The notes beneath the pieces were generated by a model. The model was not told the DNA's origin. It saw nothing but the letters and a program-made list of their open reading frames with translations, and ran no database searches. The position numbers and the translations under genes are program-made. Shown here piece after piece: positions 38,401 to 44,396 of a DNA stretch of 64,000 bases (position 1 is its first letter; each line of letters starts with the position of its first letter). Origin of the DNA: an uncultured delta proteobacterium (lineage in GTDB: Bacteria > Myxococcota_A > Polyangia > Fen-1088); assembly GCA_963767925.1 (NCBI GenBank), contig CAVYGB010000008.1, forward strand, positions 3,008,001 to 3,072,000, in the 5' to 3' direction.

Positions 38401-39549
38401 GACGTCCCGGCTGATGATCTCGAGGTGCAGGTGGTGCCCGCTGTGCAGGAAGCCGAGGGGGCCCAGCGCCTCGCCGGCCCGCACCCGGGTCCCCGCGCGC
38501 AGGGGGAGGATGCGGCGGCGCCCGCGCAGCCAGGTCGTCCAGTCGACCTTCTCCGCCTCGGTCCAGCGCAGGAACTCCGAGGCGCTCGGCACCCGTGTCC
38601 GGTCCTCGCTGCCGAGGTCGGTGCACAGGAGATTGTGCAGGTGCACGTAGCGCACGAGGAAGCTGCGCCCGTCGGGCAGCTCGTGGCGCACCACCACGAT
38701 GACCCCGCCGTTGCCGGGCCCCGAATAGGCCGTGTCGAGGCTGGCGCCCACCACCGTCCCGTCGCCGATCGAGCGCACCGCCAGCTTGCCGACCGCTGCC
38801 GCCGGGATCGGGATGTCGACCGCGCCGTGCCAGGCCTGCCGATCGGCCTTCTTGCGGCTGTAGAGCGGGAAGTGGCCGCCGAACTGGGCCCGGTAGACCA
38901 GCCCGAGGAACGATCGGTAGCTGGTGTCGCGATCGCCGTCCAGCGCCGCGACACCGGCCGCCCGGGCCCGCTTGCGCCAGGCCTCGTCGAAGTGGCTGTC
39001 CAGCTCCTGCAGCCGGAAGGGGAAGGTCCAGCCGGTCGGCGCCGGGGCGGGGGTCGGTTGCGGCCGTTGCCCGAGGACGAGCGTGTCTTCCCGGATCAGG
39101 CCCCGGGGACCGTAGAGCATGTGCGGCTCGACGTCCTCGCCGAGCACGCGCACGGTGGCCAGCCGGGCCTCGCCGAGCGCGCGCTGGACCACGAGCTGGC
39201 CCGGGGAGAAGGCCTGCAGCGGCGCCGCCGAGCCCGGCAAGGCGACCGGCTCCCAGACCACCTCCGCCCAGGCCTCGTCGGCTTCGGGGCCGTCGGGCGG
39301 AAGCGCGATCACCTGCGCCCCCCCGTACACCACCCTATCGAACACCCGGCCCAGATCAGGTCCCCCGGACGGAAGCGCGATAGGCGTCGGCATCGGCGTC
39401 CATTGCTCGACGGGCGCTGGCGCTTCACCGAACAGATCGGCGGCGAACCGATCGGCGCGCGCCCGCTCCGCGGGCGATCCCGGCGCGCCCCCCCCGCTCC
39501 CGTTGCCCCGAGCCCCCCGGCGCTGCCCCCGAACATCCCGATCCCACAT
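35446..39549 (-). CDS. Multi-domain peptidoglycan hydrolase: M23, YkuD-like, two PG-binding, MepA/M74-like and 3D domains; no signal peptide
   Basis: HGAVD..HLHLEI (M23); NLHPA..SSQGCQTV (His/Cys, L,D-transpeptidase-like); LRFGSSGGEVTRLQ and SVGRGGVNAPDDV (PG-binding); HSGHETGLACD..HDDHIH (MepA-like); RTLAAD..DTGGAI..HFDVFVG (3D). Confidence 0.85.
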   Translation of the reverse strand: MWDRDVRGQRRGARGNGSGGGAPGSPAERARADRFAADLFGEAPAPVEQWTPMPTPIALPSGGPDLGRVFDRVVYGGAQVIALPPDGPEADEAWAEVVWEPVALPGSAAPLQAFSPGQLVVQRALGEARLATVRVLGEDVEPHMLYGPRGLIREDTLVLGQRPQPTPAPAPTGWTFPFRLQELDSHFDEAWRKRARAAGVAALDGDRDTSYRSFLGLVYRAQFGGHFPLYSRKKADRQAWHGAVDIPIPAAAVGKLAVRSIGDGTVVGASLDTAYSGPGNGGVIVVVRHELPDGRSFLVRYVHLHNLLCTDLGSEDRTRVPSASEFLRWTEAEKVDWTTWLRGRRRILPLRAGTRVRAGEALGPLGFLHSGHHLHLEIISRDVFEGLEPLASREALQAMDPAQANRHRSARGNVGRAYWADPGDRDGWIWYHPLHFLQLLAGGTLEDTAPAAAARAPRPPAPATRPTAPTAPAATGAARWAVDGEAPDHRHLQAHPASHLPFSFGVAHLEQLCALNRFPLAAAGDRLLFGLRGCTLEGEALGSGWTTAARLVETTPDHDGARCLLGVWDWPGGRIRLFKGSTVPSAGSMRKFVHNQPGDRCNLLPTGFYPYRVGTHARSKPREVKGAFRQQGAVVVLRTLDDLVYTVADTWDSGVVHDNLHPARRVGSDGFSSQGCQTVPGEYDRQTGVHAGAWRDFREAAGLTPAAAPPGEDGRAFHYVLLTGREARLVGQLANPGAALTRLRFGSSGGEVTRLQEGLRRAGHYTGAATALMDVETTLAFVRWQRAVDGGRADAIVTPEALRQLAPAPAPAALAPPAVAPPVPLAPDATFILRASVGRGGVNAPDDVAALKDRLIALGYHWVKPGRTVDADIFHAIDLVQSIAAGRHRVRGDGRVDVPGATLDWLQARNAPRWQVMPAGSPAEGFHNFELTDTRDKHDYGTSWLADVIRAAGAHYRDNHLRAHPAATPLTTNNVSLPRGGDTPKHSGHETGLACDLRLPRLDGQAGGITPTSPTYDRNAARAMLQALRAQPPVAKIYFNDETLIAESLCKPQDDHDDHIHFEIRPPTRLPTPTAHPPVPIPVPVPAPLSPAPLSTTAPTAPTTAFRPFFITAYHVAIEPPTTTDPLVPLLSKTGDVIAQVPAGFFAEMALQGSGRLKDGRLLSGAGWRAPGDHDYAPVLAVHRRRYPAGNKYQDRTKVSGISLEDDDITSVRAYAVTPTAKEGLGYGILRGIPLDPYRTLAADIGAFESSDDRYRGAVGKSRSRVVINGKTGLVPTGTRVYIRQLDGFTLPDGKRHDGWLQVNDTGGAIYGAHFDVFVGARDNGPPLLKLAREGTFMDIWFEGIEDRVPADYSYGFPRKRGRRSNA

Positions 39550-39756
39550 CGCCTCGCTCCTTGCCTCGCGACCTTCGACCGCAGTCCGACCCCGTCATGC
39601 TAACACCGCTCGCAACGCCCGCAGCGGAGGAACGACAAAAGCGCAAGACAAGCGCGCGACAAACGCGCGCCGAGCGCAGTGGCACACCGGAAATTTTCCC
39701 TGGCCCTGAAAATTTCCCCGCGCTGATCGTTGTCGATCACGAAGCGCGAGCTGCCA

Positions 39757-39800
39757 AGCACAAGCACGAGCACGAGCACGAGCACGAGCACGAGCACGAA
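39757..39800. repeat. (CACGAG)n hexamer microsatellite in the divergent intergenic region
   Basis: GCACAAGCACGAGCACGAGCACGAG..., about 6-7 copies, with scattered related units to about 39835. Confidence 0.8.
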
Positions 39801-43047: not shown

Positions 43048-43085
43048 GGGCAGCGGGGCCAGGGCGCGGGCGGGGAGGTCGGAAG

Positions 43086-44396
43086 ATGGTCTCGAAGAGA
43101 GCGTGGTTGCAGGCGGAGCTGTTCTACGCCGATCTGATGGGGCTGCCGGCCCCCTTGCTTCCGGGCAGCGCCCGGCCGCTGCGGCGGCTGCCGGCCTTGC
43201 CGTACGAGCAGAACCCGCCCGCCCCCGCGGTCCTCCCGCCGCCCACCCCCATCCACCCGGTCCCCCGGGGCCTCAACCTGGTCCCCCACGCCCACCTGCG
43301 CCAGACCTGCGCCGACGGGCAGGCCTTCCGGGCCGACGCCGCCGCCACCCCGATGTCGTCGGCCACCATGAACCCGGGCTTCCTGAAGGCCGACGACCTG
43401 ATCGAGTTCGACACCCGCCTCGACGGCAAGCTGATCGACCTCATCGTGGGCAACGCCGACTACCGGACCATGGTGAGCGCCGAGAGCGTCCGGCGCCGCT
43501 GGCCCAGCCAGGGGGACAAGCTGCGGGTGGCCCTCGTCGACCTCACGGGTAGCAAGCTGTGCCGGCCCGGCTACGCCGGCTGGGGCTCGACCTGGCCGAT
43601 GCCTGGCGGCAGCACCGCCAAGATCGCGATGGTCTACGCCGCCCACCAGCTCCTCTTCGATCTCGACGAGCTGGCCCGGGTGGGCGGCCTGCGCACGGCC
43701 GCCGACCTGAAGACCGCCGCCCGCGCCGCCTGGTCGGGGCTGACCTGCCCGCCCGACCTCGACTGGCTCGTCCAGCTCGACGCCAGCAGCGCTCCGGTGC
43801 GGGCCACCGCCAGCGCCAACCTGCAGCGGCACCTGCGGGAGATGGTGGACGCCTCCTTCTCCGGCGTCAGCACCTCGCGGGCCAGCGAGCTGATCATGCG
43901 GATCGGGTTCGAATACCTCGCCTCGGTGCTGTGGCAGTCGGGCCTGCGCCACCCCACCCGCAACGGGCTGTGGGTGGGTAACACCTTCATGAACGTGTCG
44001 ATCACCGCGCGCGCCCAGGCGGCCTGCCACAGCGGCAACAACCCCATCACCTGGAGCAAGAACCCGCTGGGGGCCACCGGCATCACCCTCACCGGCCTGT
44101 CGGCGGCGACCTATTTCACGCTCCTGGCCCAGCGCCGGCTGGTCAACGACGCGGGCTCGCGCCAGATCGAGACCCTGCTCGCCAGTGGCTGCCGCTTCAT
44201 CTCCCTCTCCGGCGCCACAATCCGGGCCAGCAAATGTGGCCTCACCTCCTCGGTGCGCCACGACGCCGCCCTGATCGAGAACGGCACCCGCCGCTACGTG
44301 GTCGTCGTCCTGACCAAAGACGCCACCTGGTCCACCGCCGTGCGCGCCCGCTTCCTCGACGACCTCGACACCCTCATCCGCAACAACAACCCTTGA
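43086..44396 (+). CDS. Serine beta-lactamase/PBP-like hydrolase
   Basis: ATG at 43086 after GGAGG; SxxK motif GSTAK; KCG in place of KTG; HDAALI..YVVVVLT; no signal peptide. Confidence 0.8.
   Translation: MVSKRAWLQAELFYADLMGLPAPLLPGSARPLRRLPALPYEQNPPAPAVLPPPTPIHPVPRGLNLVPHAHLRQTCADGQAFRADAAATPMSSATMNPGFLKADDLIEFDTRLDGKLIDLIVGNADYRTMVSAESVRRRWPSQGDKLRVALVDLTGSKLCRPGYAGWGSTWPMPGGSTAKIAMVYAAHQLLFDLDELARVGGLRTAADLKTAARAAWSGLTCPPDLDWLVQLDASSAPVRATASANLQRHLREMVDASFSGVSTSRASELIMRIGFEYLASVLWQSGLRHPTRNGLWVGNTFMNVSITARAQAACHSGNNPITWSKNPLGATGITLTGLSAATYFTLLAQRRLVNDAGSRQIETLLASGCRFISLSGATIRASKCGLTSSVRHDAALIENGTRRYVVVVLTKDATWSTAVRARFLDDLDTLIRNNNP

Follow-up and report, generated by a model that had tools for sequence, protein, structure and literature searches.

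A conserved N-terminal leader on unrelated enzymes encoded around a TcA-like translocator gene without TcB and TcC partners

We describe here a short N-terminal leader shared by unrelated enzymes that are encoded in a 64,000-nucleotide stretch of the genome of an uncultured delta proteobacterium (Myxococcota_A, Polyangia, Fen-1088; assembly GCA_963767925.1, contig CAVYGB010000008.1, positions 3,008,001 to 3,072,000), hereafter the window. Tc toxins are understood as three-part machines, in which the cargo is made inside, and limited by, the TcB–TcC cocoon. Our results show that the leader is a portable, conserved, N-terminal module without Sec features that co-occurs only with a cluster built around a cocoon-less TcA, in the genome of the window (G000), in an Acidobacteriota metagenome-assembled genome (MAG; G089) and in a Myxococcota genome of another family (G319). 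Most probably it recruits the enzymes that carry it to this TcA-like system, whatever the mechanism. A first-pass annotation of the window had read the motif as a putative targeting signal, and this proposal is borne out: the module is portable, kept in orthologues, N-terminal in 50 of 51 database proteins and tied to one machine, being present at three of three such clusters and at none of seven canonical TcA loci.

Results

The leader in the window

The window has a G+C content of about 72%, and genes were called from the G+C of third codon positions. The leader heads three adjacent genes, and all the strings quoted in the first-pass annotation were found in place: RFAADLFG, from 39447 on the minus strand, at residue 39 or so of a 1367-residue peptidoglycan hydrolase; LFERDLFG, from 40963, in an S8 protease; and LFYADLMG, from 43122, in a class-A beta-lactamase-like serine hydrolase, also called here penicillin-binding-protein (PBP)-like. 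The corresponding leader cores, ADRFAADLFG (39427..39456, minus strand), TDLFERDLFG (40954..40983, plus strand) and AELFYADLMG (43113..43142, plus strand), were matched by a genome-wide search with a leader profile at E values of 4.9e-8, 1.7e-9 and 2.3e-9, respectively.

The pattern [FLWY]xxDL[FM]G has 18 matches among the 18,673,934 six-frame residues of the whole genome (9,336,993 bp in 13 contigs). Three of the 18 fall in one 3.7-kb stretch, at the heads of the three genes, and only these three lie near the start of an open reading frame (ORF) and are followed by a proline tract. When a profile of 13 leader cores was run against the 76,992 genome ORFs of at least 60 residues, the three window proteins, all of which belonged to its training set, ranked at the top (27.4, 23.4 and 16.4 bits), and the next-best ORF scored 9.1 bits. 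The leader motif is real and far above chance, and the clustered, N-terminal position of its matches contradicts the idea that it is equally frequent at random N-termini. In each of the three genes an ATG lies upstream of the motif, with a Shine-Dalgarno-like site (AAGGAG, GGAGGGAG or GGGAGG) 7-9 nt ahead of it, so the true starts do not lie downstream of the motif; orthologues start at the same place as the leader genes of the window.

Some of the finer features that had been read into the leader did not generalize. The strings RRAW and KRAW are literally present, but the tryptophan is not a general feature, since R-E-R-R occupies positions -5 to -2 of the wider logo. The strings PVEQ, PYEA and PYEQ are also there; the general feature downstream of the leader is, however, G-x-P-P followed by an Arg-rich run. 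Pro-x-Glu occurs within the 50 residues after the leader in 19 of 45 leaders, against a mean of 17.6 in shuffled sequences (181 of 500 shuffles reach 19), and with no enrichment the proposed removal of the leader by cutting at Pro-x-Glu is not supported. A weaker version of the leader had been claimed for the neighbouring DUF2272 protein. A degenerate remnant is indeed found at 39997-40032, but this N-terminus, LDWDTLFETRPP from 39997, gets no score with the leader profile. The S8 protease, the PBP-like protein and the peptidoglycan hydrolase meet the core A-[DE]-L-F-x-A-[DE]-L-x-G within their first 70 residues or so, with Arg-rich flanks, and the DUF2272 protein of the window does not. Relatives of the latter elsewhere do carry the full leader (G089 L043:8157, P0243, P0256 and P0278).

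Conservation of the leader

The leader is a module of about 25-35 residues with the consensus R-E-R-R-x-A-D-L-F-[FY]-A-D-L-[MLI]-G-x-P-P-R-R-R, in which an Arg-rich run is followed by the core A-[DE]-L-F-[FY]-A-[DE]-L-[MLIV]-G, by G-x-P-P and by a second Arg-rich run. A profile built from 20 aligned leader stretches, taken from the window and from the DNA of fetched loci, was searched against 1.84 billion representative proteins and recovered 51 leader proteins at E<=1e-3. Fifty of these are matched from a position among their first 64 residues; the exception, P0276, is matched at residue 134 and is probably false. The logo obtained from the 65 motifs in these 50 proteins reads S-x-R-E-R-R-[EQ]-A-[DE]-L-F-[FYL]-A-[DE]-L-[MVLI]-G-x-P-P, then an Arg-rich run, and the core positions are strongly conserved (counts out of 65: A 61, [DE] 63, L 48, F 64, A 54, [DE] 64, L 65, G 63). 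The first motif lies at residue 7-71 (median 20), and 21 of the 50 proteins have a tandem leader, with the copies 18-40 residues apart. None of the 50 exceeds 1.8 in the Kyte-Doolittle 15-residue mean over its first 80 residues (maximum 1.45), as a Sec-type hydrophobic segment would; among the 13 cargo proteins of the clusters the 15-residue maximum is 1.15, with no Sec/Tat h-region.

The leader is kept in orthologues of the window's enzymes. The S8 query gave 119 homologues, and of the 12 closest (57-76% identity) 11 open with A-D-L-F-E-R-D-L-F-G or a near variant, the twelfth, P0121, beginning further in. Four of six more distant relatives, 1000-residue proteins with PG_binding and S8 domains, have DRFFADLTG, DLFFEDLTG or EAFYRDLMG, and many S8 relatives that are about 44% identical carry an unrelated domain at the N-terminus instead. 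The PBP-like query gave 115 homologues, and 11 of the 115, the window's own protein included, carry the leader in the form [AD]-[DE]-L-F-[FY]-[RA]-[DE]-L-[ML]-G; these 11 are 44-74% identical in the enzyme part. The remaining homologues are truncated or have different N-termini (MYIRTSEGLG..., MYLYDRQL... or an acidic ELEAELE). The presence of unrelated N-termini on one and the same enzyme family points to exchangeable heads, that is, to leader swapping. About 30 PBP-like homologues (P0018-P0039 and others) open with another conserved head, MY[IV]RTSEGLGRLPTSYLYDSS..., and one of them, P0021, has the same source and the same longest contig (17,613 bp) as the J-protein homologue P0327; there may be a variant system with a different leader.

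The TcA-like gene and its cluster

About 7 kb from the nearest leader gene lies the gene of a TcA-like translocator of 3397 residues (18437..28630, plus strand), with PA14, ABC_toxin_N (PF20220), neuraminidase-like (PF18413) and TcB-binding (PF18276, 331 bits) domains. Its residues ~2446-3250 align to the solved TcAs YenA2, TcdA1 and XptA2 (phmmer, E 1e-84 to 1e-64). The genes for proteins A and B, for the paralogues C, D and E, for protein F and, on the minus strand, for a 256-residue J-protein are found between the TcA-like gene and the leader genes, and those for the subtilase S8b, a protein of no family, a patatin and a dynamin-like GTPase lie upstream of it. No TcB (SpvB, TcdB middle) or TcC/RHS domains were found in the 32 window stretches scanned with Pfam. 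Elsewhere in G000 only weak partial SpvB matches were obtained (25-45 bits, over at most 92 of 287 positions), SpvB and TcdB_midN are not detectable in the whole G089 genome, and none of the three clusters has a TcB or TcC gene. The weak SpvB and TcdB_midN matches of G000 correspond to three 2200-residue proteins (C1:452-458 kb, C10:436-441 kb and C10:1427-1432 kb), far from the TcA-like gene, which are presumably Rhs-type toxins.

The other two clusters were reached by independent queries. When one genome each of 185,579 species was scanned with a degenerate DNA pattern of the leader, 24 matches were obtained. A single one was a true leader, on an S8 orthologue of the Acidobacteriota MAG G089 (L028) that lies among efflux and TamAB genes; the other 23 are internal or non-coding, for example in VOC/glyoxalase proteins (AELFYRDLLG) or in a polyketide synthase (ADLFDRDLFG). 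G089 has a TcA-like gene on another contig, and TcA family matches were found in none of 14 control genomes. Around this TcA gene, blastp identified S8b (66% identity), C (52%), the J-protein (50%), a homologue of the no-family protein at 16850-17904 (48%), B, D, E, a DUF2272 protein and a sigma-54 activator; a frameshifted A is also present, and a patatin-like gene beside the cluster was read by eye in the ORF list. Being a MAG, G089 has its TcA broken into at least six ORFs and other genes frameshifted. It carries five leader genes in the cluster and five orphans elsewhere, one of them PBP-like with AKLFERDLFG. The second query, the J-protein run over 401 sampled Myxococcota genomes, matched two, G000 itself and G319 (11.5 Mb, 98% complete). 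Around the J-protein gene of G319 we found A, B, C, D, F, S8b (split into two ORFs) and a TcA of 3478 residues, 51% identical over residues 123-3398, with five leader proteins, of which one has its leader in tandem, within 25 kb of the TcA gene.

In genome-wide scans every strong leader match of G000 (three) and G319 (six, in five proteins) lies in the cluster, and the next-best matches have E values of 0.016 and 0.023; since the cluster sequences trained the profile, the informative part of these scans is the absence of other matches. In searches for further clusters, the J-protein profile matched one of 401 genomes in an Acidobacteriota phylum sample and one of 301 in a sample of the order of G089, in both cases G089 itself, and the PBP-like gene was found in none of 88 other genomes of the window's order; these extra searches scored the 6-9 best first-look candidates per genome, so that some copies may be missed. 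The S8 orthologues P0117 and P0119 share their source and longest contigs (44,322 and 45,257 bp) with the J-protein homologues P0296 and P0351, which suggests that the S8 and J-protein genes are co-located there too. The cluster is thus known from Myxococcota and Acidobacteriota; Desulfobacterales yielded a leader-bearing enzyme, with no cluster seen.

The TcB-binding domain TcA_TcB_BD is present in 23 of the 401 sampled Myxococcota genomes. As controls we used 24-60 kb around seven other TcA genes from five Myxococcota genomes. These seven canonical loci contain no leader ORF (best score 5.9 bits) and no homologue of A-F, of the J-protein or of S8b. The control TcAs match that of the window over the last ~900 residues only (26-41% identity), and the first ~2380 residues of the window's TcA do not align to them. 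Three of three checked neighbours of the control genes are TcB–TcC fusions, in which SpvB scores 284-310 bits and the two TcdB middle domains and RHS repeats are present, in one case with a CdiA_C toxin end. With the leader at all three cocoon-less clusters and at none of the seven canonical loci, it accompanies the TcA subtype that lacks a cocoon, and not Tc loci generally.

Proteins that carry the leader

Cargo 1, the peptidoglycan hydrolase (35446..39549, minus strand), is a multidomain protein with Pfam PG_binding_1 and 3D domains and a weak MepM/M23-like stretch. Cargo 2 is the S8 subtilase (40897..43047, plus strand); its ATG at 40897 fits the starts of the orthologues, and a GTG at 40879 is also open. 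Cargo 3, the class-A beta-lactamase-related serine hydrolase (43086..44396, plus strand), scores 20.9 bits with Beta-lactamase2, under the cut-off of 22, and its homologues are annotated as 'serine hydrolase'. The DUF2272 gene with the degenerate leader (39946..40803, plus strand; Pfam 45.9 bits) codes for a papain-like protein of the NlpC/P60 group; DUF2272 is grouped with the NlpC/P60-CHAP amidases (PMC10318531).

The leader carriers of the G089 and G319 clusters include, by Pfam, two PETase-like alpha/beta hydrolases (one with PG_binding_1), Peptidase_M15_4, Phage_lysozyme2 and Big_2. In the database set, 30 of the 51 carriers were compared with Pfam: DUF2272 (3), hemopexin (2), Trypsin_2 (1), Metallophos (1) and PG_binding_1 (1) were assigned, with one Grass antifreeze beta roll on the probably false P0276, and 21 of the 30 belong to no family. 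In all, more than ten unrelated families bear the leader, and the carriers of recognisable function are mostly enzymes that attack the bacterial envelope. Of 35 cargo proteins, 26 have a calculated isoelectric point (pI) of at least 7.8; among 1500 long ORFs of G000 the share is 47%.

Three further observations concern these proteins. After its leader, the window's hydrolase contains at residues ~28-188 a second shared module of about 100-130 residues that opens [RV]-[VF]-F-D-x-V-V-Y-R-G; it is 36% identical (blastp) to that of a 1227-residue leader protein of G089, forms an insertion in three PBP-like homologues and is listed in P0002-P0004, P0245, P0250 and P0269. Between the divergent hydrolase and DUF2272 genes lies an (AGCACG)x7 repeat (39757-39799), continued by an imperfect array to ~39853. 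On a metagenome contig (L011:895-1818, minus strand), a 308-residue protein of no family with the leader ERAWRDAELFYRDLIFGP is encoded tail to tail with a PBP-like gene.

Accessory core proteins

Proteins A to F have no Pfam or NCBIfam match. Protein A (28905..30215, plus strand, start approximate, called from the frame plot) is Pro/Ala-rich with an acidic SDESDYE tail and has homologues in G319 and, frameshifted, in G089. Protein B (30212..30739, plus strand), which we take by eye to be helix-rich, has homologues in G089 (43% identity) and G319 (37%). Alignment identifies C (30736-32085, with an acidic ESDESDE N-terminal tail), D (32122-33240) and E (33318-34196) as paralogues, which occupy 30736..34196 on the plus strand; homologues of C and D occur in both other genomes and one of E in G089. 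A model of D (predicted local distance difference test score, pLDDT, 55) suggests a plan common to the three, with a beta hairpin and a long coiled-coil hairpin, a pair of helices of moderate hydrophobicity and, at the C-terminus, a beta sandwich. Foldseek gave no fold match for this model in the PDB at E<=1e-3, nor was there a usable match in the ESM Atlas. The hydrophobic segments are weak, with a Kyte-Doolittle 19-residue mean of at most 1.45 and none above 1.3 in C or E. Protein F (34189..34755, plus strand) is basic, with a pI of 11.8, and has a homologue in G319.

The J-protein (34679..35449, minus strand) consists of a thioredoxin-fold domain followed by a J-domain (Pfam DnaJ; model pLDDT 71), and its HPD motif is intact in the alignment of all three genomes. 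The beta-alpha-beta N-terminal domain matches thioredoxins in Foldseek (TM-score ~0.56-0.60 on the target, E ~1e-3); since the CxxC position reads HPAH, it is probably redox-inactive. The J-protein is likely an Hsp70 co-chaperone of the system. Its family comprises 93 clusters in a database of 5.8 billion proteins, with Polyangiaceae and Acidobacteriota MAGs among the sources. Prediction of a complex between the J-protein and the leader, run without controls, scored 0.00 against a mark of 0.32 and weighs neither way on binding.

The Csp germination proteases, mycosin and PatA/PatG are processing subtilases, and these are the families closest to the core subtilase S8b (15042..16808, minus strand; 66% identical to the G089 copy), which scores best with CspBA (116 bits), CspC, mycosin and PatA/PatG in NCBIfam. 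All these scores are far under the cut-offs, and at 116 bits against a cut-off of 1250 S8b is not a member of those families. Its N-terminus resembles the leader loosely (MDPALWELFDAG in the window, MDPALWELIESG in G319 and MDPALMEIVDTG in G089, with the motif MDPAL[WM]E[LI]), as does the C-terminus of protein A (DEAELFAREAGF in the window, from 30126, DEAALWAIEAGF in G319 and DEADEWARDVGL in G089); judged on sequence likeness, we consider both as a lead, not a finding. The accessory protein of no family (16850..17904, minus strand) is present in G089 (48% identity), and none was found in the G319 region. A sigma-54-dependent response regulator (44468..45916, plus strand; Pfam), with a counterpart in G089 (blastp), lies at the edge of the cluster. 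The sigma-54 promoter consensus (TGGCAC-N5-TTGC) has 52 matches with at most two mismatches, against 57 expected, and gives no signal.

Discussion

The system described here is a Tc-type translocator with a different way of recruiting its cargo. As in the Tc complexes (TcdA1, YenTc, XptA2), ABC_toxin_N, neuraminidase-like and TcB-binding domains are present, the channel and funnel region aligns, and both the TcA and its clients are without signal peptides. Unlike those complexes, all three clusters lack TcB and TcC and have extra core genes (the J-protein, the subtilase and A-F). The payload consists of separate full-length enzymes with a conserved N-terminal leader, in place of the 30-kDa C-terminal region of TcC, and looks antibacterial, being wall- and lipid-degrading, where theirs is anti-eukaryotic. 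The TcC regions have no conserved motif (PMC6868009). A full-text literature search, which covered journals other than subscription ones, returned no description of a TcA cluster without TcB and TcC and with leader-tagged enzymes; the accessible part of a Tc survey mentions only orphan TcC genes (PMC7861908).

How could the leader act? We propose that in the cytoplasm of the producer the thioredoxin-fold J-protein would bring Hsp70 to the enzymes, which would stay loosely folded. The leader, which probably forms a short amphipathic helix and has a cationic tail, would dock in place of TcB–TcC, either at the TcA funnel or at the acidic tails of the core proteins A and C, and the enzyme would then pass the TcA channel N-terminus first, to enter a target bacterium's envelope or to leave the producer. 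The Csp/mycosin-like S8b may trim the leader. Overall, this would be a binary, anthrax-like arrangement of a 'B pore plus many A enzymes' on a Tc scaffold, with a changeable set of clients, cell-envelope-degrading enzymes without signal peptides. We favour threading on account of the dedicated co-chaperone, the cationic flanks of the leader and a basic bias of the cargo that matches the canonical TcA; the latter passes only unfolded, net-positive cargo (PMC6868009). The complete model, in which the leader marks enzymes as clients of a cocoon-less TcA machine and these are threaded through its channel, is possible and is put forward tentatively. We hold, with slightly greater reserve, that these clusters may represent a new class of Tc-derived delivery machine, with a cocoon-less TcA, leader-tagged enzymes, unfolding by J-protein and Hsp70, trimming by the subtilase and an antibacterial arsenal that is injected or secreted.

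Several points weigh against this model. Its mechanistic steps are deduced from gene content. The cargo of a canonical cocoon is about 30 kDa, and here it is far larger, with up to 1367 residues in the window and 1858 in the database. There is no obvious source of energy for unfolding outside the producer, and tandem leaders fit multivalent docking no less well than they fit threading. The bias towards basic cargo is modest, because five of the 13 cluster cargo proteins are acidic or neutral, and it was measured partly on proteins from other organisms. The hydrophobic moment of the core as a helix (0.41) is weakly above that of shuffled cores (0.31), and 27% of the shuffles reach it. Many of the metagenomic leader genes are on short contigs and have unremarkable neighbours. 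The three clusters probably descend from a single ancestor that moved horizontally and so are not three independent trials, and G000 is 84% complete.

Some of these points would be accommodated by a docking tag, in which nothing is threaded and the leader tethers folded enzymes, via a flexible Pro/Arg linker, to the TcA particle outside or to a scaffold of A-F. The enzymes would strip the target wall so that TcA, as a pore-former on its own, reaches the membrane. Tandem leaders, present in 21 of 50 proteins 18-40 residues apart, suit avidity for a pentamer; the large multidomain cargo, often peptidoglycan-binding, is awkward to unfold; five of the 13 cluster cargo proteins are not basic, and the long acidic tails of A and C could hold Arg-rich leaders. 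An analogy is offered by the chitinases carried on the Tc complex of Yersinia entomophaga (YenTc). Cocoon-free TcA forms an open pore (PMC6868009). However, docking of this kind would have no use for a dedicated J-domain co-chaperone whose thioredoxin-fold domain is of the client type, leaves the extreme N-terminal position and the cationic flanks of the leader unexplained and requires a docking site that is itself only hypothetical, and we regard it as rather unlikely. Still less probable is a signal for export or lysis in the producer, as in type 10 secretion, with C-E (and A, B and F) as a holin-like or other passage through the envelope of the producer itself, to which the leader would bring wall hydrolases, so that the wall opens and the signal-less TcA particle leaves. 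For the Tc toxins of Yersinia, release by a holin/endolysin/spanin cassette is reported (PMC10847048 and PMC10847046), most of the domain-recognisable cargo acts on peptidoglycan, and hydrophobic helices follow the coiled coil in C, D and E. These segments are weak, however, and the model of D is of low confidence. Moreover, one endolysin would be enough, yet each genome has 3-10 leader proteins, including proteases, esterases, hemopexin-like proteins and a phosphoesterase, which looks like an effector arsenal.

The leader could also be a chaperone-binding or regulatory tag unrelated to the TcA conduit, that is, an Hsp70/J client motif or a degron that would make dangerous hydrolases inactive or short-lived while they are cytoplasmic, with release of the enzymes by another route. 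A hydrophobic core with basic flanks resembles the DnaK-binding pattern, and the J-protein is a core gene of the cluster. Against this, two acidic residues are near-invariant in the core (63 and 64 of 65 motifs), and acidic residues are disfavoured in DnaK sites; peptidoglycan hydrolases are harmless in the cytoplasm, and the restriction of the tag to the neighbourhood of this type of TcA would be left unexplained. We consider such a tag very improbable. That the leader has no signal function, being a chance likeness or the remnant of a local duplication of 5' gene ends, has next to no probability, even though its core resembles common strings such as those in VOC/glyoxalase proteins and a polyketide synthase. 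The motif count in the genome, with three of 18 matches within 3.7 kb and all N-terminal, the conservation in orthologues across phyla and the N-terminal position of 50 of 51 database matches, on more than ten unrelated families, effectively refute it. Other known types of signal were considered and dropped with no dedicated test, the tag being bound to the TcA cluster and to large enzymes: a colicin-type translocation domain (TonB/TolB box), a double-glycine or lanthipeptide leader, a beta-clamp-binding motif and the eukaryotic endocytic DLF motif. Targeting peptides of encapsulins and microcompartments resemble the leader in having a terminal amphipathic helix and a linker; no encapsulin or microcompartment shell families turned up in general Pfam scans of the window ORFs, and no search was dedicated to them.

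Recruitment to the TcA-like system by the leader, which we continue to prefer, has parallels in several known systems. In anthrax-type binary toxins one pore (PA) serves unrelated enzymes (LF and EF) through a shared N-terminal docking segment, and these are translocated unfolded and N-terminus first. The layout that we propose is alike, with no relation in sequence or fold, and the shared part here is a 10-residue core with charged flanks, not a folded domain of 250 residues. The cargo signals of Photorhabdus virulence cassettes and the markers of type VI secretion systems (T6SS; MIX and others) are disordered N-terminal stretches or short markers on polymorphic effectors, some of which are orphans. 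Compared with those of extracellular contractile injection systems and T6SS, the leader likewise labels a varied arsenal that includes orphans, but it clusters with a TcA and its motif is far more sharply conserved. In addition, no sheath gene was found in G000, which is 84% complete: the T6SS sheath family PF05943 (TssC) has no match there, and matches away from the cluster in G089 and G319, and the phage-sheath family PF04984 has none in G000 or G089. In the CspB/pro-SleC pair, the mycosins of type VII secretion systems, PatA/PatG and LanP, an S8 enzyme cuts off a pro or leader segment at the N-terminus, and the Csp substrate is a wall hydrolase; S8b scores best with this group, but below the cut-offs, and itself starts in a leader-like manner. 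Mitochondrial-type import combines an amphipathic, Arg-rich N-terminal presequence with a J-protein/Hsp70 motor and a processing protease. The Arg-rich leader, the dedicated J-protein and the subtilase are similar to it, and the two near-invariant acidic residues of the core are not.

If the leader recruits enzymes to TcA, this would be a second way of loading a Tc-type translocator. Tc-like systems would then be concerned not only with insect and mammalian targets but also with warfare between soil bacteria, and payloads could be found by a simple sequence rule, of which the 51 representative proteins found here, mostly with function-less annotation, would be the first yield. It would also give a context to the six unannotated families A-F and to the 93-cluster family of thioredoxin-fold J-proteins, and what replaces the cocoon would become directly testable by genetics and cryo-electron microscopy.

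Additional features of the window

Upstream of the cluster, 9437-15079 holds four genes, which include one for a His/Glu-rich protein with a hydrophobic, signal-like start. The others code for a dynamin-family GTPase (11074-13266), a protein of no family (13260-14219) and a patatin-like phospholipase (14216-15079). Further upstream, a phosphoketolase gene (6241-8647) is split over two overlapping frames, with XFP_N, XFP and the beginning of XFP_C read in 6241-8481 and the remainder of XFP_C in 7961-8647, the split being a frameshift or a sequencing error. On the other side of the cluster, 53548-57060 (within an open frame of 51013-57060) codes for a protein of very large size that contains several calcium-binding EGF and cEGF domains, an unusual feature in bacteria.

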